64,000 bases of DNA from Kiritimatiellia bacterium (GCA_023953695.1 JAMLJG010000015.1:2756-66755); one strand, 5' to 3'. Positions 5,309 through 62,999 are shown, counted from the stretch's first letter. Program-made: numbers and translations. The notes: a model not told the origin generated them from the sequence alone.

Positions 5309-7021
5309 TCACGTGTACTTCAGAACTTCTTCCACCGTGGTGAATCCATCCAAAATGCAGCGAATGCCATCTTGCCGCAGGGTGCGCATTCCAAGCTCCA
5401 TCGCTTTGTCGCGAATGACAATCGTCGGCTTACGCTCGTTGATCAAATCGCGGATCGGGTCGCTAACGCGCAAGTATTCATAAATGCCGCGGCGACCTTT
5501 GTAGCCCGTCTCATTGCAACGCAGGCACCCGCTGCCGTGGTAGAACGGCCGATCCTGAACCTGCTCCTGCGAGAGGCCGAGAAGCTCCAAAACATCTTTT
5601 TCGGGCTGATAGGGCTGTTTGCACTCCTGGCAAATCGTTCTCACAAGTCGCTGGGCCAGCACGCCTTCTAGCGTGGAGGAGATGAGGAACGGCTCCACCC
5701 CCATGTCAATGAGTCGGGTGACCGCGCCCGCTGCGTCGTTGGTGTGGAGGGTGGAGAACACCAAGTGACCTGTCAGCGACGCCTGAACGGCGATTTCCGC
5801 CGTCTCTTTGTCGCGAATTTCACCGATCATGATGATATCCGGGTCTTGGCGCAGAAACGCACGCAACACGCGCGCAAAGGTCAGTCCGATAGCTTCGTGG
5901 ACGGGAATCTGGATAATCCCCTCAATGTCATACTCAACCGGCTCTTCCGCCGTGAGCAACTTGGAATCAATGGTATTCAGCCGGCGCAGAGCCGAATAGA
6001 GCGTGGTGGTCTTGCCGGAACCCGTGGGTCCCGTGACAACCACAATGCCATTGGGTTTATCAATATCGAAGCAGAAGGAGTTGAATACATCCTCGGGCAT
6101 CCCGAGGTTCTGAAGATCCAACTGAATCGAGCTGCGGTCCAACACGCGCAACACCACACTTTCGCCAAACTGCGTCGGCAGCGTCGAAACGCGGAAGTCA
6201 ATCTGCTTCCCGCCCACCGGCATCTGAATGCGGCCGTCCTGCGGCAGTCGTCGCTCGGCGATGTTCAGACCCGAAATAACCTTGATTCGAGAGATGACCG
6301 GCAGCGCCAAATGCTTTGGCGGCGGCGCCATTTCATACAGCGCACCATCCACGCGATAGCGAATCTTGAACTCATTCTCGAACGGCTCGAAATGGATATC
6401 GGATGCGCGATCTTTGACGGCCTGAAAGAGGACCAAGTTCACAAAGCGAATCACCGGCGCCTGGTTGGCCATTTCCTCGATTTCGGCCGTCTGATCCGCG
6501 CCTCCGGGGCGAATGGTGGCCTCGCCGACGTGCTCAAGTTCGCTCTCGAGCTCGGAAAGCATGTCGTTTACAGAGTCACTCGTATCGCCATACTGCTGAC
6601 TGAGCACCGCACGAATGTGCTCTTCCGAAGCAACGACAAAGGACACATCGCGCGTCAACACGAAGTTGAGCTCATCCACAAGCTGCGGACTCAATAGGTC
6701 GTAGGTCGCCAACACCACAGAGTGAGCATCCGCTTCAACCGGCACCACGTTATACATGCGCGCCACGCTGCCCGGGATGGACTTGAGGACGGATGGAGAC
6801 AGATCAGAGTGCAGCAGATCCACCACCGTGGACCCGAGATGCGTCGCAATCGCCTGCAACAGATCGGCCTCGCTGATAATATCCATCGCAATCAGCGTGT
6901 CGCGCACAGGTTTCCCTGTTCGCTCGCGCTCGTCCACAACTTCCTCCGCCTGTTGCTGGGTGATGAGCCCATCCTCAACAAGTTGGAGAAGCAAGGGATC
7001 GTTGAAATCTGATTCCGTCAT
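5309..7021 (-). CDS. GspE/PilB-family secretion ATPase (paralog 2)
   Basis: N-terminal GspE_N/MshEN-like domain, Walker [14 protein letters not shown], Asp and His boxes, and a C-terminal tetracysteine (CQEC...CLRC). Confidence 0.9.
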
Positions 7022-7032
7022 GACGATTCTGC

Positions 7033-8121
7033 CTAGCGACGGCCCCTCGGTTGAATTTTTTGCACCGTTGTATCCACGTCTTGCGCGCTGGTGATAACCT
7101 CTTCGTAGCCAATAATTCCGTGCTCGAATAAATCCACCAAATGGTCGTCGAGCGTCATCATTCCGAATTTGGCGCCCGTTTGGATATCGGAGGTGATGCG
7201 GAAGGTCTTGTTGTCGCGAATCAGCGAACGGATCGCGGGCGTCGCGACCATGATTTCAAATGCGGCCACGCGACCGGGGCGATCGTTTCGCACCAGAAGC
7301 AACTGAGAAATAACGGCTTCCAAACTCGATGCAAGCTGCGTGCGCACCTGGTTCTGCTGCTCCATCGGGAACGCGTCCACAATGCGATCCACGGTGCGCG
7401 CCGCGCCCGTGGTGTGCAATGTGGCAAAAACAAGGTGTCCCGTTTCGGCCGCGGTGATAGCCGCCTGGATGGTCTCCAAGTCGCGCATTTCGCCGACGAG
7501 GATCACATCCGGATCCTGTCGCAAGCCGCGTTTGAGCGCCTCTCCAAACCCCGGCACATCCACCCCCACCTCACGCTGCGTGATTACACTCTTCTTGTGA
7601 GGATGATAGTATTCGATCGGGTCTTCCACCGTGATGATGTGCACATCGCGAGTCTCGTTAATCACATTAATCATGCTCGCGAGCGTCGTCGTTTTCCCCG
7701 AACCCGTGGGCCCGGTGACGAGTATCAGCCCGCGCGGCTTGTACAACAATTCCTTGAGGCCTGGCGGCAACCCAATCTCTTCCAAGGACAAAAGGCGCGA
7801 TGGGATCAATCGCAGGACAATCCCGATCATCCCCTTTTGCCGAAACACACTCACACGGAAACGACCGCGATCGTGGTGTCCAAATCCAAAGTCCGTGCCT
7901 CCGTTTTCAGCCAGCCGCTTCTGATGCTCCGGCGGCGTGAACGATTTCATCAACCGCTCGGTATCCTCCGCCTTAAGCGGATCCGTATCAATCGGCTGTA
8001 GGCGCCCGTGCAGACGCAAGACAGGCGGAAGCCCAACGCCAATGTGCAAGTCTGAGGCCCCCTCCTCAATCACGAGATCGAGCAAGTCGCTCATTTGCAA
8101 CTCTGCTGCGCGCAAGCTCAT
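7033..8121 (-). CDS. pilT: PilT-family twitching-motility / retraction ATPase
   Basis: About 360 aa with no N-terminal GspE_N domain. Walker [14 protein letters not shown] and PilT-type signatures are present ([22 protein letters not shown]). Its start codon overlaps the stop of the upstream pilB-like gene at 8121. Confidence 0.85.
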
Positions 8122-9830
8122 CAGTTCGAATCCCCCATCGTGGTGCGAACCACTTCCTCAAGGGTCGTCTGCCCCGCAATCACCTTGCGAATTCCATCCT
8201 CGCGCAGGGTGCGCATCCCCAACTCGCGCGCCCGCGCTCGAAGATGCGACGCCGACACACGTTCGTAGATCATGTGGCGCACTTCATCGTTGATCAGGAA
8301 AATCTCGAAAATGCCTATGCGCCCGCGATACCCCGTTTGTTTGCACTCCGAACACCCGCGCCCGCGGAACAACTGCACCGCCTCCAACTTGCCCGCCAGA
8401 CCGCCGAATGTTCGCAGCTCGGCATCGGTCGGTTTGACGGATTCTTTGCAGCGCTCGCATATTTTCCGAACCAATCGCTGCGCCATAATCGCGCGCGTGG
8501 AAGAGGCGACCAGGAAGGGTTTGACACCAATATCAATCAAACGGGTCACAGCGCTTGGAGCGTCGTTCGTATGCAGCGTGCTGAAAACCAAGTGGCCCGT
8601 TAGTGACGCATTAACGGCGATCTCCGCCGTTTCCAAGTCGCGGATTTCACCGATCATGATGATGTTCGGCGCTTGCCGCAAAATCGAGCGAAGGGCCGCG
8701 CCGAAGGTCAACCCGATGTCCGAGCGGACATGCACCTGGTTGATTCCGGTCATTTGATACTCAACCGGATCTTCCACCGTGATAATCTTGCGATCCGGCT
8801 TGTTGATATGGTTCAAGCACGCATACAGGGTCGTCGTCTTCCCTGAGCCCGTCGGCCCGGTGACGAGAATGATGCCGTCTGACAACCCTATCAAGCGCTC
8901 GAAGGTCTGTTGATCGTCCGAGAAGAAGCCCAATTTCGGAAGGCCCAGCGAGAGGCTCTCCTTGTCCAGAATACGCATGACGATCGTCTCGCCGTGATTG
9001 CACGGAACCGACGACACACGCAGGTCCAAATCGCGCCCCATCACATTGATCTGAATGCGCCCGTCCTGAGGCAAACGCTTTTCCGCGATACTCATGTTTG
9101 CCATGATTTTCACGCGGCTGATGATTGCAGATTGAAGCCGTTTCGGCGGGCTCTCGACCTCATGCAAGACGCCGTCAATGCGATAGCGCACGCGGAACTT
9201 GCGCTCCAAGGGCTCCAAATGAATGTCTGATGCCCGGCTGCGAAACGCCTCGAGAATGATCAAGCTCACCAACTTGATGATCGGCGCGTCGGCGTCGGTC
9301 ACCTCATCTTCACCCTCGAGCTTCGGCGTCCCCTCGCCCGGTGCCTGTATGGATCCCTCCGTCAGCTCATCGAGCATGGAGGCGACCGTGCTCCCTGTAG
9401 CAGGATACATACGGCTCAGCGCGGCTTCGATTTCCTCCGGAATCGCCACCACACCGGCTACATCGCAGCGCAACACGTAGCGCAGACTGTCCAGCGTCTC
9501 CACATCCAGCGGATCGCTCAAAGCGACGGTGATCGTGGACTCTGTGCGATAGACGGGGATGATATGGTAGCGGCGAGCGACTTCGCCAGGAACCAAGTCC
9601 ACCACTTCTTGGTCAAATTCCAAGCCGGATAGACTGACAAACTCCATCCCGAATTGATTGGCCAGTGCCTTCAGTATGTCGGATTTCGTAGCGAATTTGC
9701 GCTCTGCAAGGACATCTATAACAGTCGTGTCAGCGTCCTGAGCGATCTGTAGCGCCTCTGCACCCTGCTGGTGAGTGATCAGGCCAACACTTTCCAGGAT
9801 TTCAATTACGTATTCGTCGTTTGCAGTCAC
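8121..9830 (-). CDS. GspE/PilB-family secretion ATPase (paralog 1)
   Basis: GspE_N domain, Walker [14 protein letters not shown] and a C-terminal zinc-finger-like CERC...CSEC. Same architecture as paralog 2. Confidence 0.9.
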
Positions 9831-43621: not shown

Positions 43622-44053
43622 ATGCGTTTGATCGGAAAACTCCTCCATTGGCTCCCCGCCATCGCCTGGGCCAGCACGCTCTACAGCCTCAGCAGCCGCT
43701 CCGCCGTTCCCGACATCCCCTCGTGGTTTTCGGCACACGACAAAGTCACACACGCCATCGCCTTCGGCCTCCTCGCCTCTCTCATCCAGTTCGCCTTGCT
43801 TCGAGCTCATCGCCTGCGCTTCCTCCCCGCCGCCTGCATCGCATGGCTGCTGACCACCGCCTACGGCGGCCTGGACGAACTGCACCAGCGCTTCACACCC
43901 GGCCGCGTTTCCGACATCGCCGACTGGATCGCCGACATGACCGGCGCAGCCCTCGCCCTCGCGATCCTCGCCCTGCTCGCCTATTCGTATCGCCGAATCA
44001 CCCCGCGCACCACCCCGCCAATCACCAGCGACTGCCGCGGCCGAATGAATTGA
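43622..44053 (+). CDS. VanZ-family membrane protein
   Basis: Three to four TM helices with the conserved DKVTHAIAFGLLA and GGLDELHQRFTPGR motifs of VanZ-like proteins. The 3' end overlaps lexA convergently by 73 bp. Confidence 0.6.
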   Translation: MRLIGKLLHWLPAIAWASTLYSLSSRSAVPDIPSWFSAHDKVTHAIAFGLLASLIQFALLRAHRLRFLPAACIAWLLTTAYGGLDELHQRFTPGRVSDIADWIADMTGAALALAILALLAYSYRRITPRTTPPITSDCRGRMN

Positions 44054-44583
44054 TACTTCCTATTCGCCGGATCCAAGCGAACCCCAACGCTGTCCTTCAC
44101 ATAATACTTCAGCGTCCACTCTCCATCCACCTGCGCAACCACAATCTGCCCATTGCGCGGCTGCGAGCCCTTCTCCACCAGCACGATATCGCCCGGATGA
44201 ATCCCCGCATCCACCATCGAGTCCCCATTCACCGTCAGCAGAAACGTCGCCTCCGGACGCCGAATCATATATTCATCCAGACTCAACACATCCGCCGCCG
44301 CCTCCTCCGCCGGCGATGGAAATCCCGCCTGAACAAAACCCAGCATCCGAACCGTCCCCGACAACTGCGCCGTCGGAGACAAATGCCCCGCCGCATCCTT
44401 GGCGAGAAACCCATGCTCAACCAACTTCTTCACCAACCCCGACACCGCATTCGTCGAGCGATAGCCAAAAACATCCAACATCTCCCGATAACTCGGCAGT
44501 CGCTTCTCGCGCCGATAGAAAAGGCGCAATTCCTGAATCTTCTCCTGAATATCAAGCGTGCGCGGCATGGCCAATCTCCCCAT
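43981..44583 (-). CDS. lexA: LexA repressor (S24 peptidase)
   Basis: N-terminal wHTH, an Ala-Gly cleavage region (VQAGFPSPA), catalytic Ser (GDSM) and Lys (KGSQPRNGQIVVAQV..LK) motifs of the S24 family. Confidence 0.85.
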   Translation of the reverse strand: MGRLAMPRTLDIQEKIQELRLFYRREKRLPSYREMLDVFGYRSTNAVSGLVKKLVEHGFLAKDAAGHLSPTAQLSGTVRMLGFVQAGFPSPAEEAAADVLSLDEYMIRRPEATFLLTVNGDSMVDAGIHPGDIVLVEKGSQPRNGQIVVAQVDGEWTLKYYVKDSVGVRLDPANRKYQFIRPRQSLVIGGVVRGVIRRYE

Positions 44584-44680
44584 TCATCCTGTCCAAACCA
44601 TAACTGAACACCCGTTCACCCGCAACACTTTTCCGCAACCCCTCCAAACAACGCGAGAGTCGAACCCGCCCCCAAAAAAC

Positions 44681-44759
44681 TTCCAAGCCTTGGAAGCCCA
44701 TCTCGCACAAACTTCCAACCCTTGGAAGTCAGCGCCCCCCAGACTTCCAATCCTTGGAA
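44681..44759. repeat. array of three 15-bp palindromes TTCCAA-N3-TTGGAA at exact 32-bp spacing in the lexA / lipoprotein divergent intergenic region
   Basis: Copies at 44681-44695 (gcc spacer), 44713-44727 (ccc) and 44745-44759 (tcc). Each is preceded by ACTTCC context. The same motif family occurs upstream of bioA. Confidence 0.7.
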
Positions 44760-44903
44760 CTTCCGTCACCAGCGACCTCCAAAATCGCGCCGCCTCAAAC
44801 TGCACACATCCAACTGTGCATCGCACCGAAACACCACCTCACCCAAAGTGCCCGCCCAGAACTTTCCGATTGAACAACCTACCCACCCCGCCTAGTCTTC
44901 GAT

Positions 44904-45419
44904 GTGCCGTTGAAGCTTGACTCTATGCCAGCTCACATCCGCACGTCATTCGCCATCCTCGCAGTCACACCCCTGCTGCTCGGTTGCCAATATAATCCGT
45001 ATGCGCACCTGTTCACCACAACCCAGCCGAAGCAAGAGCATGTCGCCGGGAGCTACTCGCTCACCCAGCAGACGATTGCGCCGGGAGGATTGAGCCTTCT
45101 CCAGGGTCAGCGGTGTGTGCTGGAGTTGCGTGGAGACGGCACTTTCAGCATCATGAATTACCCGACCTGGTCGGAAGCGTTTTCTCCCACCAATGGGCAG
45201 CTCGTCGCCTCCATCAGCGCGACTGGTCGTTGGTCTTGCGATACGGTTGGCGTTGTCTCCGATGGCCGCAAGAGCCAGCGCTATTGGGGCGTTCAATTTT
45301 CGGACGCAGACACTCAGCTTGATCCACTGACCCTCACCGGCAAGACTCCGCCATATGGCCTCATCATGACGTATGGCGATCCCGATAGTGGCACAGTCAT
45401 GATTTTCGAGAAGAAGTGA
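44904..45419 (+). CDS. hypothetical lipoprotein
   Basis: Lipobox LLLGC after an N-terminal signal (probable start MPAHIRTS at 44925). No family match. Divergent from lexA. Confidence 0.5.
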   Translation: MPLKLDSMPAHIRTSFAILAVTPLLLGCQYNPYAHLFTTTQPKQEHVAGSYSLTQQTIAPGGLSLLQGQRCVLELRGDGTFSIMNYPTWSEAFSPTNGQLVASISATGRWSCDTVGVVSDGRKSQRYWGVQFSDADTQLDPLTLTGKTPPYGLIMTYGDPDSGTVMIFEKK

Positions 45420-56160: not shown

Positions 56161-56348
56161 GCCTCCAAACTCCTTGCTGCACACCCAACAGCCAGCTATC
56201 TTCGCCCATGCTGTGAAAACGCTGGGAAAATCAGCAATTTGTGGAACGAAGCGGCCCTCTGGACACCCCGCAAAGGCGCCGCCCGAATCGCTCTCTTCAC
56301 CGCGACAACAACCGCAACAACACAACCCGAGATTCAGCAGGTGCAGAC

Positions 56349-56987
56349 ATGGATGAATCAAAGAATACTGCAATCATCATGCGAGACGCAGAACATGGCG
56401 ACACCGAAGCCAAATGTATTCTCGGCATGATGTATTTAGATGGACATGGCGTCCCTCAAAGCGACGCGAAGGCGCTCGAGTGGTTCGCCCAGGCCGCAGA
56501 AGAAGGCAATGCCGACGCGCAATTCTATCTCGGCGTCATGTACTACGAAGGCCGGTGCGTACCCCAAAACTACGCAAAAGCCGTCGAATGGTATTCACGA
56601 GCCATTGAACAAAACCACGCCGAATCGCAATTCAACATCGGCTGGCTATACGCCAAAGGGCATGGCCTTCCGCAAGACGACGTAAAAGCTGCCGAATGGA
56701 TCGCAAAGGCCGCGGAACAAGGAGACGCAGACGCGCAATCCGACCTCGGCGTCATGTACTACGAAGGCCGCGGAGTGCCCCAAGACGATACAAAAGCATT
56801 TGAATGGCTCTCAAAGGCCGCCGCGCAGGGCATTGCCACATCGCAAGCCAACCTCGGTGAAATGTATGAAAAAGGCCGAGGTGTGCCACAAGACTACGCA
56901 AAAGCTGCCGAATACTACGCCATGGCCGCCGAACAGGGCCATGACGATGCGCAAAGAAATCTCGACGCGCTGTCCGAGAGAAATTGA
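56349..56987 (+). CDS. Sel1-repeat (SLR/TPR-like) protein
   Basis: Five tandem 36-aa Sel1 repeats (A.AxxWYxKAAEQGxAxAQxNLGxMYxxGxGVPQD). Local GC is visibly lower than the flanking bio genes. Confidence 0.75.
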   Translation: MDESKNTAIIMRDAEHGDTEAKCILGMMYLDGHGVPQSDAKALEWFAQAAEEGNADAQFYLGVMYYEGRCVPQNYAKAVEWYSRAIEQNHAESQFNIGWLYAKGHGLPQDDVKAAEWIAKAAEQGDADAQSDLGVMYYEGRGVPQDDTKAFEWLSKAAAQGIATSQANLGEMYEKGRGVPQDYAKAAEYYAMAAEQGHDDAQRNLDALSERN

Positions 56988-57886: not shown

Positions 57887-58571
57887 CGCAGGCCTCATCG
57901 TGGTCGGCACGGATACGGGGATCGGCAAAACGCGGGTTGCGGCGGCGCTGCTGGTCGCGCTTCGCGCACGCAGGTTCGATGTCGTGCCGATGAAGCCGAT
58001 TCAGACGGGCGCGGAGCGCGGGCGCGCGCCCGATTTGGATTTCTGTTTGCAGGCGGCAAATCTTCCGTGCGACGCAGCGTTGTATGACCGACTCGCCCCA
58101 TACCGCTTTGCGCTCCCCGCGTCTCCGCATCTCGCAGCGCGCGAGGCGGGCGCAACGATTGAGGCGCAACGCATTTGGGATGCGTGGACAGCGCTGCGCG
58201 ATGCGGGGCATGGCGTGATCGTCGAGGCGGCGGGCGGGGTGCTAGTTCCGCTGAGCGATTCGCTCCTGCAGATGGATCTGCTTCTCGGGTTCGATCTCCC
58301 CTTCCTCCTCGTCGCGCGGCCGGACCTGGGCACGTTGAATCACACGTTGTTGACACTGGAGGCGCTGAGGAATCGCAATGCGCAGATCGGCGGAATCGTG
58401 CTCAATGCCACGCGCGCGGACAGCGGTTTGATTGAAGAGGATAACGCCCGTACGCTGGCGGCGCGAAACCCCGATGTGCCCCTCCACCGCTTCCCGTTTA
58501 TGCCGGACCCCACCCGCGCGGCCCTGGAAAAGGCGGGCGCGGATCTTCTGGCGACGCTGCACTTCCAATGA
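57879..58571 (+). CDS. bioD: dethiobiotin synthetase
   Basis: P-loop GTDTGIGKT with the BioD-type fold. The start MIDAGL overlaps the bioC stop. Confidence 0.9.
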   Translation: MIDAGLIVVGTDTGIGKTRVAAALLVALRARRFDVVPMKPIQTGAERGRAPDLDFCLQAANLPCDAALYDRLAPYRFALPASPHLAAREAGATIEAQRIWDAWTALRDAGHGVIVEAAGGVLVPLSDSLLQMDLLLGFDLPFLLVARPDLGTLNHTLLTLEALRNRNAQIGGIVLNATRADSGLIEEDNARTLAARNPDVPLHRFPFMPDPTRAALEKAGADLLATLHFQ

Positions 58572-58672
58572 TTGGAAACCGGTCGCGCGCGGACTTCCAA
58601 CGATTGGAAAATTTGCGTGTGAAAGTTCCAAGGGTTGGAAGTATGGTGCGAGGAAATTTCCAAGCGTTGGAA
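58563..58672. repeat. array of four TTCCAA-N3-TTGGAA palindromes at 31-32 bp periodicity upstream of the bioA 5' fragment
   Basis: Copies at 58563-58577 (tga), 58595-58609 (cga), 58626-58640 (ggg) and 58658-58672 (gcg). The last two lie inside the duplicated block shared with the functional bioA upstream region. Confidence 0.7.
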
Positions 58673-58689
58673 ATATGGGGTGATTTTCG

Positions 58690-58869
58690 ATGAGTGTTTC
58701 TGAGGTTCAGCGTTGGGATCGCGCGCATGTGTGGCGCCCGTACACCAAGGCTTCCACGCTTGAGGCGGGGCCGGCGCCGGTCATTGTGCGGGGGCCACCC
58801 GGGGTCTGCCACCCGGGGTCAACCCTTGAAAGGCCGTTGAAAAACTCGCTGTTGCCGATGTCTGTTTAG
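58690..58869 (+). pseudogene. orphan 5' fragment of bioA (first 35 codons) truncated by an insertion
   Basis: MSVSEVQRWDRAHVWRPYTKASTLEAGPAPVIVRG is near-identical to the N-terminus of the full bioA at 61686. The reading frame then continues into unrelated sequence and stops. Confidence 0.7.
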
Positions 58870-59411
58870 ACGAAACGGGGGACGAGCCCCCATCGCCGCA
58901 TCTTTTCCCAGCATGGAGGGATGCGGCCCGTGAATGCGGCGATGCCGACGCCCGCCCGTTCAATAGCGGTCACCGCGGTTCGGACCATTTTACCGGGCGC
59001 CTTTCCGGCTGCCCGGATGATCCGCTGCCGGTGCGTGGGGCACTGCGCCGGCCTCCACCATGCACCGAACAGCCGGACCAAACCCGTACGCCTTATCGCC
59101 ACCCACCGTGGTCGGTTCGATGCCCAGCGCAAAACGACTGCGCTCGGTCATGAGGCCCGCCGCCTGTCCTTCTGGCACAAGCGACGCTCCGAGGTGATGC
59201 CGTGCAGATATCCCAGCGCCATCATGCGGATCAACACTTCAGGATCGATCGAAGGGCGGCCCGTGTGGCTGTAGAGCGAGCGGGTCTGTTCTTCCACAGC
59301 AGAGAAATCGATGTAGCGGTCGATCTTGCGCAAGAGGTGGTCGGCGGGAACAAGATCCTCAACTCGAACCATCGAGAACATCGGCTCCGCGCGTCGTTGC
59401 TTACCTCGCAT
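58866..59411 (-). pseudogene. IS5/IS1182-family (InsH-type) transposase remnant with frameshift/internal deletion
   Basis: N-terminal InsH-like domain (MFSMVRVEDLVPADHLLRKIDRYIDFS...HTGRPSIDPEVLIRMMALGYLHGITSERRLCQ). A second, frameshifted piece contains the DDE-region motif GDKAYG. Most of the catalytic core is missing. Confidence 0.6.
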
Positions 59412-59591
59412 GGGAACGTCTCCTTATGTCGGCTCGAATGCCGACCTCACTCCAACGACTCAAGGCCCAGACGTGTTCATCGTTTATCCGAGTTTTTCAA
59501 TAGCCATTATTCCACTGACCCCTATTCCACAGACGTTCGCCCCACGGCATGACTGCTTTACGGCTCTCTAGCGTCATGATATGATAGCGCC

Positions 59592-59780
59592 ATGATTCAG
59601 AAGGTGATACAGCGACATGCACTGAAGGATGAAGGCAAGCCATCTCTAGAGTTGAGCTATTGGCTTAAGGTATCTCCGGAAAAGCGTGTTGAGGCAGTTG
59701 AACTCCTCCGCAGGCAGCATTATGGAAGCTCAACCCGACTACAGAGAACTGCTCGAATTATTCAACGCCCAAGGGGTTGA
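59592..59780 (+). CDS. small hypothetical protein (possible partner of downstream nucleotidyltransferase)
   Basis: 62-aa ORF overlapping the start of the nucleotidyltransferase-fold gene. No family recognised, and it may be spurious. Confidence 0.25.
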   Translation: MIQKVIQRHALKDEGKPSLELSYWLKVSPEKRVEAVELLRRQHYGSSTRLQRTARIIQRPRG

Positions 59781-60186
59781 ATTTCTCATTGTTGGCGCCT
59801 ATGCGCTGGCCTTCTATGGAGCGCCACGTACGACAGGCGACATTAACCTTCTTGTTCATTCAACCCCCGATAATGCGGCGCGCGTTGTCGCCGCTCTTGA
59901 CGCCTTTGGTTTCGGGTCCCTCGGGCTCACAACGGACGACTTTCAAACTCCCGATCAAGTTATTCAACTCGGCGTCCCCCCTGTGCGGATAGATATTCTG
60001 ACGTCTCTCTCGGGTGTCACATGGAATGAGGCAAACGAGGGCAAGGAGCCGGGCAACTACGGGGATGTACCGGTATTCTTCATCGGCAAGACCGAATACA
60101 TAAAGAACAAGAAGGCCACAGGCCGCAAGAAAGATGAAGCCGACGTTGAAGCCTTGGGGCAATCAGGGGCGACCCTTGAGAATTGA
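59722..60186 (+). CDS. nucleotidyltransferase-fold protein (MNT/AbiEii-like minimal NTase)
   Basis: YRELLELFNAQGVEFLIVGAYALAFYG...TGDINLLV matches the minimal nucleotidyltransferase pattern (hG[GS]...D.D). About 155 aa. The start is taken at MEAQPDY. GC content is lower than the host genome. Confidence 0.5.
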   Translation: MEAQPDYRELLELFNAQGVEFLIVGAYALAFYGAPRTTGDINLLVHSTPDNAARVVAALDAFGFGSLGLTTDDFQTPDQVIQLGVPPVRIDILTSLSGVTWNEANEGKEPGNYGDVPVFFIGKTEYIKNKKATGRKKDEADVEALGQSGATLEN

Positions 60187-60367
60187 CAAAGGCGGGGGCA
60201 GCGGGGTCAGCAATCGGCTGTATCGCCGGCGCAAAGGACTGTTCGACGGTCAAGATTATGCGATACCAAGAACTGATCCGCGCCCCCCGCCTACACCGCA
60301 TGGCTCACTCGCGACGGGCTCGCTGTCGGGTGTGGCGTGACCTTAGGCGGACGAAAGAGGAGGCACT

Positions 60368-61129
60368 ATGAGTTTAAGAAGGAAAATTGAGGCGCTTGCG
60401 GGGCACCTGACCGGTAGACGCAAGAATCGCGCACCTCCGCGTGGCATGGATTTCGCCTTGGACATCGCGTATGCCTTGCCGTTGTTTCGCGCGAGCATTG
60501 TTTTTGATGTAGGTGCCAACGTTGGTCAATCCGCGAAACTGTTTTTGGCCAAGTTCCCAGATTCGCACATCTACTGTTTCGAGCCGGTGACCGATACGTA
60601 TCACCTGCTTCAGCACAACTTACATGATACCGAGCGCGTTGATTGTCATCAGTTGGCCTTCGGCTCTACAACGAGAACCGGGGAGATGATTCTCCAAGGC
60701 TCCTCCGACATGTTCTTTTTGCTGGGCCAATCGAGCGAGTTGCCCAACAAAGAGGTGCGAAGCGAGTCCGTAAACATAGACACACTGGATGCCTTTTGCC
60801 GCGCGAACAAGATTGATCGCATCAGCTTCCTCAAGATAGACACCGAGGGAGGAGATCTAGACGTCTTGAGAGGCGCAGAAATGATGCTAGGCGAACAGAG
60901 AATAGATATTGTTCAAGTGGAAGCTGGGATGAGTCCGACTAACAGCAGGCATGTGCCATTTCAATCCCTAAAGAATTTTCTCGAAGACCATGGGTACTAT
61001 CTGTTTGGCATTTACGAACAAGTGAAGGAATGGCCTACTGGAGAACCTCACTTGCGACGGACAAACCCCGTATTTATCTCACAACAGGTGATTGACAAAA
61101 ATCGAAAGCAAAAGAGACCCAGGACATAG
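60368..61129 (+). CDS. FkbM-family methyltransferase
   Basis: Methyltransf_21 signature VFDVGANVGQSAKLF...CFEP...FLKIDTEGGDLDVL. Located in the low-GC cargo of the island. Confidence 0.75.
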   Translation: MSLRRKIEALAGHLTGRRKNRAPPRGMDFALDIAYALPLFRASIVFDVGANVGQSAKLFLAKFPDSHIYCFEPVTDTYHLLQHNLHDTERVDCHQLAFGSTTRTGEMILQGSSDMFFLLGQSSELPNKEVRSESVNIDTLDAFCRANKIDRISFLKIDTEGGDLDVLRGAEMMLGEQRIDIVQVEAGMSPTNSRHVPFQSLKNFLEDHGYYLFGIYEQVKEWPTGEPHLRRTNPVFISQQVIDKNRKQKRPRT

Positions 61130-61235
61130 CAACGCGCTGTAACGGACGGCAATTTCGCTGTGTTCCCTTGCTGCCGGTGAACTTGGGCAGTATGTGTCTA
61201 GATCACTTGGACAACGGCCCCATTAGAAAAGGAGT

Positions 61236-61556
61236 TTGCACATGAGTCATAAAATCTCCGGGGGGTTAGTACATGAGCTGCCCGTTGATTTAGCCAGGGC
61301 ACTGATTGAAAAAGACACCATCGGTGCATGGGAGGCCTTATCACCCATTGGCCGCAATGAATTTATCTGCTGGGTGGAAGATGCCAAACAAGAGAAGACC
61401 AGAGAAAAACGGATTCTTCGAACGGTAGAAGAGCTACTGGAAGGCAAGAAACGACCCTGCTGCTGGGTCGGGTGCATTCATCGTACAGATAAGAAGCCAA
61501 GCAAATGGCAACAAGATGTGTTGATAGACAAAAAGAAAATTGCAAGGAAGAGTTGA
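61236..61556 (+). CDS. YdeI/OmpD-associated (OmdA) family protein
   Basis: Conserved OmdA core GRNEFICWVEDAKQEKTREKRI with the typical roughly 100 aa size. A hairpin TTTGGC-tgac-GCCAAA follows the stop. Confidence 0.6.
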   Translation: MHMSHKISGGLVHELPVDLARALIEKDTIGAWEALSPIGRNEFICWVEDAKQEKTREKRILRTVEELLEGKKRPCCWVGCIHRTDKKPSKWQQDVLIDKKKIARKS

Positions 61557-61622
61557 GAACGACACATGGCAAGTCGTTCACGGTGCGACGTCTTTGGCTG
61601 ACGCCAAACGCGCGCCTTTATC

Positions 61623-61668
61623 TCCAATCATTGGAAGTATGGTGCGAGGAAACTTCCAAGCGTTGGAA
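61623..61668. repeat. two TTCCAA-N3-TTGGAA-type palindromes upstream of the functional bioA (one degenerate CTCCAA)
   Basis: Copies at 61623-61637 (CTCCAAtcaTTGGAA) and 61654-61668 (TTCCAAgcgTTGGAA), 31 bp apart. The right member is homologous to the palindrome at 58658. Confidence 0.6.
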
Positions 61669-61685
61669 ATGTGGGGTGATTTTCG

Positions 61686-62999
61686 ATGAGTGATTCAGAG
61701 GTTCAGCGTTGGGATCGCGCGCATGTGTGGCACCCGTACACCAAGGCTTCCACGCTTGAGGCAGGGCCGGCGCCGGTCATTGTGCGGGGCGATGGGATTT
61801 ATTTGGTGGATGCGGAGGGGCGTCGTTTTGTGGACGCGATTTCGTCGTGGTGGTGTGCGGCATTGGGGCATGGGCATCCGCGGATTGTCGCGGCGATCCA
61901 GGGTCAGGCGGGGGTGTTGCAGCACAGTATCCTGGCGAATCTGACGCATCCGCAGGCGGCGGAGTTGGCGGCGCGTCTTGCGGGGATGATGCCGACGCGG
62001 GAGCGCCGCGTTCTGTTTGCGAGCGATGGGGCGAGTGCGGTGGAGCAGGCGCTGAAGATTGCGGTGCAGTATTGGAGCAATGTGGGGCGTGGCGCGAAGC
62101 GGAAATTTGCGTGTTTGCATACGGCGTATCACGGGGACACGTTGGGCGCGATGGCGGTGGGCTATCTGGAGGAGTGGCATCGGCCATTTCAGAGCTTGCT
62201 GGCAGAGGTGGTGGCCCTTCCCTTCCCCGTGGGCGCGGGCGAGTTCGGCGTTTGGGAGCGCGCGCTGGAGGCGCATCGCACGGAGTTGGCGGCGGTGATT
62301 GTGGAGCCGCTTTGTCTGGGCGCGGCGGGGATGTTGATGTATGCGCCGGAGCTGTTGCGGGCGTTGGGCGATTGGTGCGCGAGGAATGAGGTGTTGTTGA
62401 TTGATGATGAGGTGGCGATGGGGTTTGGGCGCACGGGTCGGATGTTTGCGTTTGAGCATGCGGGGGTGGATCCGGATTTGGTGTGCGTGGGCAAGGCGTT
62501 GAGCGGCGGGGCGCTGCCGATGAGCGCGACGATTGCGAAGCAGTTTCTCTACGATTCGTTTTCGGACGCGGAGCGGGATCGGACGCTGCAGCACGGGCAC
62601 ACGTTTTGTGGCAATCCGATTGGCGCGGCAGCGGCGAATGAGGCGCTGCAGATTTATGCGGAGATGGATGCGCCTGCGCGCGCGCGATCGCTCGGGGCGC
62701 GGATGGCGAAGCGCTTGGGCGCGCTGCGTGGAAAACGCGGGGTTCGCGATGTGCGCGGTCTCGGATTGATTGGGGTTGTGGAGTTGGAACCGGAGGCGAA
62801 TTGCGGGGCGATTTCGCGCCCGCATCGCATTCGACTGCGTCTTCAGGAGCGAGGTGTTCTCCTTCGCCCGCTTGGGAACGTGCTCTATTTGATGCCGCCT
62901 CTGATTATCTCGGAGGAGGAGCTCGACGCGCTGGTGGAACTCTTTGTCGGGGCAATCGAGAGCGAGCTGGCTATGGCAGGAGCCGCGGAAGGAAAATAA
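61686..62999 (+). CDS. bioA: adenosylmethionine-8-amino-7-oxononanoate aminotransferase
   Basis: Class III PLP aminotransferase with the BioA-specific N-terminus (WHPYT...) and the catalytic lysine context (DEVAMGFGRTG, CVGKALSGG). 437 aa. Confidence 0.9.
   Translation: MSDSEVQRWDRAHVWHPYTKASTLEAGPAPVIVRGDGIYLVDAEGRRFVDAISSWWCAALGHGHPRIVAAIQGQAGVLQHSILANLTHPQAAELAARLAGMMPTRERRVLFASDGASAVEQALKIAVQYWSNVGRGAKRKFACLHTAYHGDTLGAMAVGYLEEWHRPFQSLLAEVVALPFPVGAGEFGVWERALEAHRTELAAVIVEPLCLGAAGMLMYAPELLRALGDWCARNEVLLIDDEVAMGFGRTGRMFAFEHAGVDPDLVCVGKALSGGALPMSATIAKQFLYDSFSDAERDRTLQHGHTFCGNPIGAAAANEALQIYAEMDAPARARSLGARMAKRLGALRGKRGVRDVRGLGLIGVVELEPEANCGAISRPHRIRLRLQERGVLLRPLGNVLYLMPPLIISEEELDALVELFVGAIESELAMAGAAEGK

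Follow-up and report, generated by a model that had tools for sequence, protein, structure and literature searches.

A palindrome array upstream of lexA in a Kiritimatiellia bacterium is probably part of an abundant, helically phased family of putative protein-binding dyads and incidental to lexA and bioA

Palindromes iterated throughout a bacterial genome are an already known kind of sequence. The repetitive extragenic palindromic (REP) elements and bacterial interspersed mosaic elements (BIMEs) of Proteobacteria, together with the REPINs, are short, occur in hundreds to thousands of mostly extragenic copies as singles, dimers and clusters, vary in abundance by species, occupy operon spacers and convergent regions, and cause assembly breaks. 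The cyanobacterial palindrome HIP1 (GCGATCGC) is an 8-mer tied to orphan methyltransferases; it is hyper-abundant within and outside coding sequence, conserved at high taxonomic rank, quasi-periodic in its distribution, and of debated function. The DNA uptake sequences (DUS) of Neisseria and the uptake signal sequences (USS) of Pasteurellaceae are asymmetric 9–12-mers that occur about once per kb, sit within genes in tolerated reading frames, and are conserved across a family or class while their positions turn over. Dimer-bound palindromes that cooperate at whole helical turns include the NrdR boxes (31–32 bp), the sites of Lrp and other feast/famine regulatory proteins (FFRPs), the 43-bp sopC repeats of the F plasmid, and the parS sites and Noc-binding sites (NBS), both of which can lie inside coding sequence. 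The subject here is an array of three palindromes of the form TTCCAA-N3-TTGGAA, found upstream of lexA in a 64,000-nucleotide stretch of DNA from a Kiritimatiellia bacterium (GCA_023953695.1, JAMLJG010000015.1:2756-66755), hereafter the window. Its source organism was placed in the Kiritimatiellae, within the Planctomycetes-Verrucomicrobia-Chlamydiae (PVC) group. On the sequence comparisons given below, the lexA palindromes are probably a local array of an abundant Kiritimatiellia family of putative protein-binding dyads, helically phased and incidental to lexA and bioA. What is new relative to the known kind is the class-wide 19-bp dyad, its whole-turn spacing and its imprint on coding sequence.

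The interval 44584–44903 is the spacer between lexA, on the minus strand, and a small lipoprotein open reading frame (ORF), on the plus strand. Three exact copies of TTCCAA-N3-TTGGAA, to which no strand is assigned, lie within it at a spacing of 32/32 bp: A1 at 44681–44695 (TTCCAAGCCTTGGAA; extended form cTTCCAAgccTTGGAAg), A2 at 44713–44727 (TTCCAACCCTTGGAA; 32 bp after A1) and A3 at 44745–44759 (TTCCAATCCTTGGAA; 32 bp after A2). A decayed half-site, CTCCAA, was read from the sequence at 44777–44782, exactly 32 bp past A3 and again without strand. The three copies and their phasing had been reported in a first-pass annotation and are confirmed here as exact matches. The distances given there to the two flanking genes are about right: the copies lie 98–176 bp from the longest-ORF start of lexA (44583), 112–176 bp from its homology-supported ATG (44568; near edge of each copy), and 145–223 bp from the lipoprotein ORF, counted to its GTG at 44904. 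The lexA gene itself (43981–44568, minus strand) encodes 195 aa beginning MPRTLD, and its closest homologues are the annotated LexA proteins of Kiritimatiellae metagenome-assembled genomes (MAGs). Since these homologues, which carry Peptidase_S24, are also 195 aa long and start with MPRTLD, the lexA ATG was placed at 44568, downstream of the start of the 200-aa ORF. In strains L001 and L002 the A1 core is kept and its central triplet is GGC, GGG or GAG (lexA strand); across strains of the species to which the window belongs, none of the 36 core positions changes, and the central triplets and spacers vary. The same array recurs at bioA, as had also been stated, with four copies at 58563–58672 and two, one of them with a mismatch, at 61622–61668. 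In total, the 64-kb window contains eight exact matches, against 0.00 expected from 100 dinucleotide-preserving shuffles.

A canonical LexA (SOS) box of the form TGAAC-N4-GTTCA, TGAACACCCGTTCA, is found on the minus strand at 44605–44618, 37 bp upstream of the lexA ATG and outside the palindrome family. It is the sole perfect TGAAC-N4-GTTCA within the window and is of the Cheo type, GAAC-N4-GTTC. Related lexA loci were compared (L001, L002, L005–L007, L128, L129 and L130; LexA 74–99% identical), and cTGAAC-N4-GTTCAg occurs 37–51 bp upstream of the lexA ATG in all eight, which include five lineages beyond the window's own species. The palindromes, in contrast, are present upstream of lexA only in the window's own species (L001 and L002) and are missing there in L005–L007, L128, L129 and L130. 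L130 lacks them even with a LexA that is 83% identical and with shared PreP-lexA-VanZ synteny. The array is a recent, lineage-specific occupant of the spacer. As noted in the first-pass annotation, TTCCAA-N3-TTGGAA matches none of CTGT-N8-ACAG, GAAC-N4-GTTC, GTTC-N7-GTTC or TGTTC-N4-GAACA. The canonical box had been missed there, although a separate, conserved LexA box in this interval had been named as a finding that would count against a regulatory role for the palindromes; the box is present, and is conserved in the eight related loci. The palindrome resembles LexA operators in its dyad form and its place upstream of lexA, but it was rejected as the operator, given that it is not kept at lexA, fits no LexA motif and stands beside a separate conserved box. 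From the conservation of that box, the predicted LexA operator is the GAAC-N4-GTTC site near the gene, separate from the palindromes. Thus lexA here appears to have an ordinary Cheo-type box for autoregulation and no hidden lexA-bioA regulon, a deflationary result for the question originally raised.

The palindromes extend far beyond the window. One genome per species was scanned for two palindromes 30–34 bp apart, and at least 119 stretches from at least 46 assemblies carried such tandem palindromes. The matched assemblies were all labelled Kiritimatiellae, Kiritimatiellales or Pontiella, or bore the older labels Lentisphaerae, Verrucomicrobia or Spartobacteria. A scan of metagenomes, in which any centre-to-centre distance of 16–46 bp was allowed, returned at least 120 stretches. 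Both scans needed at least one exact pair, and counts drawn from them here are among the matches listed, as distinct from genome-wide totals or the share of single sites. Orthologues shared by some array-bearing genomes are only 25–37% identical, which argues that the motif is old. The 396 exact sites give the consensus wT-TTCCAA-(T/G)-S-(A/C)-TTGGAA-Aw, a 19-bp dyad of 9-1-9 symmetry; 99% of sites have G or C at the centre, and T..A or G..C pairs are enriched beside it. Flanking positions more than 2 nt from the core carry 0.01–0.1 bit of information. Arrays contain two (n = 110), three (32), four (17), five (4) or six (4) copies.

Abundance was assessed in 21-kb samples around mnmE, which were chosen without regard to the motif. 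With up to one mismatch allowed, these contained 6, 11, 12 and 20 sites, of which many were intragenic, against a chance expectation of about 0.05 by our own estimate. The density extrapolated from these Kiritimatiellales samples is approximately 0.3–1 site per kb, and in two of the unselected loci, L138 and L260, most sites are intragenic. Density varies widely between lineages, from 0 in 20 kb around lexA (FR_21) to 20 in 21 kb (L260), and array positions are mostly unconserved between species. An Rfam scan of the window at gathering thresholds returned only rRNA and tRNA and no matching family, and a permissive Rfam scan of the arrays at lexA and bioD-bioA gave only sub-threshold chance matches (CRISPR-DR45, tRNA-Sec and mir-87). 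The CRISPR-DR45 match was dismissed at 15 bits against a threshold of 37, and a CRISPR array was rejected for a repeat of 19 bp with spacers of 12–13 bp, in 2–6 copies at hundreds of loci. True CRISPR loci have 23–50-bp repeats and unique 26–72-bp spacers, form long arrays at few sites, and are accompanied by cas genes. Full-text literature on the motif, on palindromic repeats in Kiritimatiellae and on REPs in Verrucomicrobia yielded no description of the palindrome family. Phased palindrome pairs were also seen in seven viral or proviral contigs of IMG/VR (L131–L137).

Spacing between neighbouring palindromes follows the turn of the double helix. Among the metagenome matches, centre-to-centre distances of 16–19 bp occurred once, 20–23 bp 23 times (21 of these at 22 bp), 24–29 bp twice, 30–33 bp 146 times and 40–44 bp 21 times, with none at 34–39 or 45–46 bp; longer neighbour spacings were 52, 62–63, 73, 82, 94, 102, 113 and 124 bp. 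The best-fitting period is 10.2–10.5 bp; its resultant length is 0.90, whereas 300 random sets reached at most 0.24, and the phase of the spacings is near zero at 10.4–10.5 bp. Three turns (31–32 bp) are strongly preferred, and two, four, five and six turns are also present. In this the family shares the spacing grammar of cooperative phased arrays of the NrdR, Lrp or sopC kind. The identical phasing at lexA and bioA, first regarded as a peculiarity of two promoter regions, is therefore one instance of a family-wide rule seen in hundreds of the arrays listed. Whole-turn spacings place the sites on one face of B-DNA, which argues that a protein cooperating from site to site recognises the DNA in double-stranded form. 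Whole-turn spacing classes are not expected from hairpins of RNA or single-stranded DNA. Complementarity of the flanks beyond 2 nt outside the core equals that of the shuffled control, and both a longer hairpin and a 31-bp palindromic unit were rejected because the flanks are no more complementary than shuffled pairs. Degenerate copies comprise 35 with a single mismatch and 5 with a double mismatch, and the partner base of the single changes stays at consensus, leaving them uncompensated.

Several arrays fall inside coding sequence, within Pfam domain envelopes to which they add no length; these are in MnmE (two doublets), AroB, a DHODH-like protein and NamZ. Isolated exact sites are also found in coding sequence (9–13 of 23), and nearly all of these are in the frame TTC CAA NNN TTG GAA, encoding F-Q-x-L-E. 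The 120 MnmE homologues listed, which are 69–100% identical, are nearly all 453–457 aa long, and the doublet-encoded peptides, GS[KN]VWKIADEIFQxxE and VFPNLGKKLDxSFQxLE, are kept in each of the first 60 homologues, the number inspected. Four mnmE sites occur at identical codons with 0–1 mismatch in L096, L138 (Tichowtungia aerotolerans, CP047593.1), L260 and L261. In the mnmE of L139, three of the four sites are lost through changes that include the synonymous CCA to CCG and CTT to CTC, and most of the peptide remains. The gene rsmE (Methyltrans_RNA), at approximately 7–8 kb in these loci, carries a doublet 53 bp (five turns) apart in L138 and L260; L139 and L261 each have one site at the matching position. 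Coding sites without added length indicate that the palindromes arise in place and can be maintained there, which the insertion of a mobile unit does not explain.

The genomic context of the arrays shows no preference for promoters. By gene calls from a crude ORF and codon-bias caller of our own, which makes the fractions approximate, the 329 arrays listed lie between tandem genes (129), convergent genes (45) or divergent genes (32), inside a called gene (50), or at a contig edge (73), and the convergent share of the classifiable arrays is 22%. All intergenic regions of the same loci comprise 641 tandem, 161 convergent and 160 divergent. The arrays match this background split and so fill every type of intergenic region, those without a promoter included. 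Their neighbours are functionally incoherent: 63 proteins matched 98 Pfam families, among them sulfatases, tRNA synthetases, EF-Ts, MurJ, MreC and transporters, and no recurrent family was found among the 123 genes that have an array no more than 250 bp upstream. A search for a conserved target or for the gene of an autoregulated binder gave only 4–7 cross-genome pairs, approximately the chance level by a rough estimate, and several of these came from large paralogous families. Among approximately 100 genes between or beside arrays, no transposase or REP-associated tyrosine transposase (RAYT) was found. The unrelated neighbours and the lack of a recurrent downstream family rule out a specific lexA-bioA regulator. 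It is close to certain that the lexA palindromes are members of the family and not a specific operator, and most likely that the arrays at lexA and bioD-bioA are incidental occupants of intergenic DNA. At most, these two arrays might exert generic local effects, as a roadblock, an insulator or mRNA hairpins.

Each palindrome would bind a dimer of a putative sequence-specific protein on double-stranded DNA, and dimers on the same face of the helix would cooperate as a dimer of dimers or as a higher oligomer. Given dimer binding and same-face cooperation of this kind, the sites are read as architectural or 'genome-marking', and would not be gene-specific operators. A further-reaching proposal is advanced only tentatively: the palindromes may be the sites of a putative oligomerising, Kiritimatiellia-specific DNA-binding protein, either architectural or a receptor for self DNA or DNA uptake, that imposes a chromosome-wide grammar of thousands of 19-bp dyads at whole turns, strong enough to fix codon choice in mnmE and rsmE. 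If true, this would be a genome-marking system with a reach like that of HIP1, USS or parS, distinguished by an architecture that is cooperative and phased to the helix, of which no description was found.

Several points weigh against such a protein-based reading. No candidate binding protein emerged from the array-neighbourhood analyses. The mnmE peptides are kept in L139 despite decay of the sites, and positional conservation may therefore partly reflect selection on the protein. In the window's own lineage all ten sites counted, nine of them scored as exact and none with more than one mismatch, are intergenic; evidence for sites within genes comes from other orders. The context fractions are approximate for the reason given above. 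Helical periodicity could in principle have been inherited from an ancestral 31–32-bp unit, although the 22-, 42-, 52- and 62-bp classes and the phased intragenic pairs argue against that origin.

The main rival is that the palindromes are a classical REP/BIME selfish element, copied by a RAYT as single-stranded hairpins, so that the arrays reflect the mechanics of transposition and any action of the palindromes would be as stem-loops of RNA or DNA; we consider this unlikely. Much of the general picture would fit, including the high copy number, short length, palindromic form and mostly extragenic position both in the lineage of the window and at most MAG loci, the dimers and clusters, the wide variation in density between species (from none around lexA in FR_21 to 20 in the L260 sample), the fast turnover of arrays at each locus and the signs of tandem duplication. 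Metagenome contigs break at arrays, rearrangement junctions fall at palindrome centres, and the array between bioD and bioA folds as RNA far better than its shuffles (z = −4.5). REPs are also known within genes and in Opitutus terrae (PMC3733652). They are defined, however, by a GTAG or CGTC tetranucleotide tag at one end, and intragenic REPs add 20–30 residues (PMC3733652). The Kiritimatiellia palindromes have no such end tag and their flanks are almost informationless, while the intragenic copies are position-conserved and lie in their genes without insertion. In place of an imperfect stem-loop, there is a perfect 9-1-9 dyad with a constrained central base, class-wide in distribution, in which single mismatches go uncompensated and whose 12 core bases are the same across genomes with orthologues 25–55% identical. 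The spacers are unrelated in sequence and have lengths set in helical turns, and the B-DNA-period spacings, those of 22, 42, 52 and 62 bp included, are not predicted by a hairpin model. No transposase, RAYT or other, lies between or beside arrays among the genes sampled. Of the two readings offered in the first-pass annotation, the REP-like one is the closer, but the defining tests of a classical REP fail and the term fits only loosely.

The family could instead be a 'genome word' linked to uptake, self-recognition or methylation in the manner of DUS/USS or HIP1, spread by molecular drive, by way of biased uptake or repair of DNA, or marking self DNA, which appears rather improbable as a separate explanation. 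HIP1 is a precedent for an abundant, phylum-conserved palindrome of debated function, and its hallmarks, over-representation in coding and non-coding DNA and conservation at high rank, are also found here. A density of approximately 0.3–1 site per kb in coding and non-coding DNA alike, the use of tolerated reading frames (F-Q-x-L-E, F-P-x-x-G-K and S-K-x-W-K), and a motif that is class-wide while its positions turn over would all be expected of such a word. Known uptake sequences, however, are neither dyad-symmetric 19-mers nor helically phased pairs, and DUS and USS have no grammar of helical pairing. HIP1 likewise differs from a 19-bp dyad in three-turn pairs and arrays, one that in many lineages is strongly concentrated in intergenic DNA. 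That three-turn pairs are so strongly preferred points to cooperative binding, and the genome-word reading overlaps with the preferred one in that its receptor would still be a DNA-binding oligomer. A gene-specific operator, through which a transcription factor or a non-canonical LexA would co-regulate lexA (or the lipoprotein gene) with bioA, is effectively refuted and very improbable. The arrays of the window do lie upstream of lexA, the lipoprotein gene and bioA, and tandem NrdR operators with 31–32-bp spacing are known. Nonetheless, NrdR, Lrp, sopC, parS and NBS sites number from a few to tens per replicon and have defined targets, whereas the Kiritimatiellia palindrome, present in hundreds to thousands of copies, shows no specificity for particular genes and is unrelated in sequence to the NrdR, parS or NBS consensus sites. 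The shared factor for lexA and bioA suggested in the first-pass annotation does not survive the separate conserved LexA box, the lack of arrays at lexA in five other lineages, the unrelated genes that adjoin the arrays, or the 22% in convergent positions. An apparent second case of an array at bioA was discarded, as the gene concerned is a paralogue (probably HemL) only 31% identical and the array is at its 3′ end. In the window, the array between bioD and bioA runs over the stop codon of bioD within the operon.

A bacterial class thus carries an apparently undescribed, hyper-abundant 19-bp palindrome, intermediate in character between REP and HIP1, that is helically spaced even within protein-coding sequence. 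If a cognate protein exists, it would offer a new handle on chromosome organisation or self-DNA recognition in the poorly studied PVC group, of which Tichowtungia, Kiritimatiella and Pontiella are cultured members. The motif explains contig breaks in Kiritimatiellia MAGs and provides a compact taxonomic signature for binning, and it should be masked in motif-discovery and regulon-prediction pipelines for Kiritimatiellia.

Arrays also bear traces of their own growth. Spacers next to each other in an array resemble one another slightly more than random ones do (0.36 vs 0.30), 21 of 191 spacer pairs are at least 60% identical against 2.5 expected, and neighbouring palindromes share the same central base in 120 pairs and have the opposite one in 69. 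The alike spacers and shared central bases indicate that arrays grow partly by tandem duplication of a 31–32-bp unit; REPIN-like inverted doublets are not favoured by the same central-base counts. After duplication of a unit, the spacers would decay while the cores persist, and arrays would be gained and lost quickly at any one locus, both of which are borne out in part. Two metagenome contigs terminate in or beside the lexA array. Contig L003 departs from the other strains at the centre of A2, which could be an assembly artefact, and contig L004 starts inside the A1-A2 spacer. Rearrangement junctions fall at palindrome centres in two cases (n = 2), namely the L003 divergence point at A2 and the left end of a 167-bp duplication at palindrome B3, described below.

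The array between bioD and the 5′ fragment of bioA has four exact copies at 58563, 58595, 58626 and 58658, spaced by 32/31/32 bp and, like the two copies farther on, without strand. The central TGA of B1 (58563–58577; TTCCAATGATTGGAA), which is identical in L127, is the stop codon of bioD. B2 lies at 58595–58609, the 167-bp direct repeat begins at the centre of B3 (58626–58640), and 17 bp separate B4 (58658–58672) from the ATG of the bioA 5′ fragment downstream. The copies in the duplicated region are C1 (61622–61636; CTCCAATCATTGGAA), which has one mismatch, and C2 (61654–61668; TTCCAAGCGTTGGAA), which is exact and 17 bp upstream of the ATG of the intact bioA (61686). A 2.8-kb insertion (58794–61622) separates the bioA 5′ fragment (58690–58793) from the intact bioA (61686–62999). 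It is flanked by the 167-bp direct repeat, which is 95% identical (region 58627–61789), and contains DUF772 transposase fragments, an FkbM methyltransferase and an OmdA-like ORF. An identical insertion structure is found in GCA_024102575.1 (L127). A Sel1-repeat gene with 108-bp periodic repeats (56241–56987), located within the bio cluster between a BioH-like hydrolase and a methyltransferase taken as BioC-like, is missing from the otherwise near-identical L127 locus. Plus-strand GC skew changes from approximately −0.33 in the bioF region (54–56 kb) to approximately +0.33 at bioA (61.5–63 kb), both genes being on the plus strand. This flip points to an origin or terminus of replication, or else to a rearrangement junction, between approximately 56 and 61.5 kb; no DnaA-box cluster was found near the switch.

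On the far side of the lexA array, the small lipoprotein ORF (44904–45419, plus strand; from the ORF list) encodes a signal peptide and an LLGC lipobox and matched no Pfam family; its start is uncertain, with an ATG at 44925. Promoter and terminator scans of the arrays at lexA and bioD-bioA were uninformative. Between the window and strain L001 (9400–9790), in which LexA is 99% identical, homology stops abruptly at approximately 44793, about 35 bp past A3, and a different small gene takes the place of the lipoprotein ORF. A tRNA T-arm-like hairpin, GCGGGTTCGACTCTCGC then GTTGTTTGGA, lies just beside the array at 44653–44669 on the minus strand, and may be the remnant of an att site. Two small ORFs that vary between strains occupy the spacer between lexA and PreP in the window and in L001; in L005 and L130 the spacer is only approximately 190–235 bp long. 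In L005 (11400–20588), the FR_21 relative, lexA adjoins a defence island that comprises QatB, a KAP NTPase, an Mrr-like nuclease and a type I restriction subunit. Elsewhere in the window, three adjoining minus-strand ORFs (5309–9830) share long diverged DNA repeats of families D3, D4, D6 and D16.

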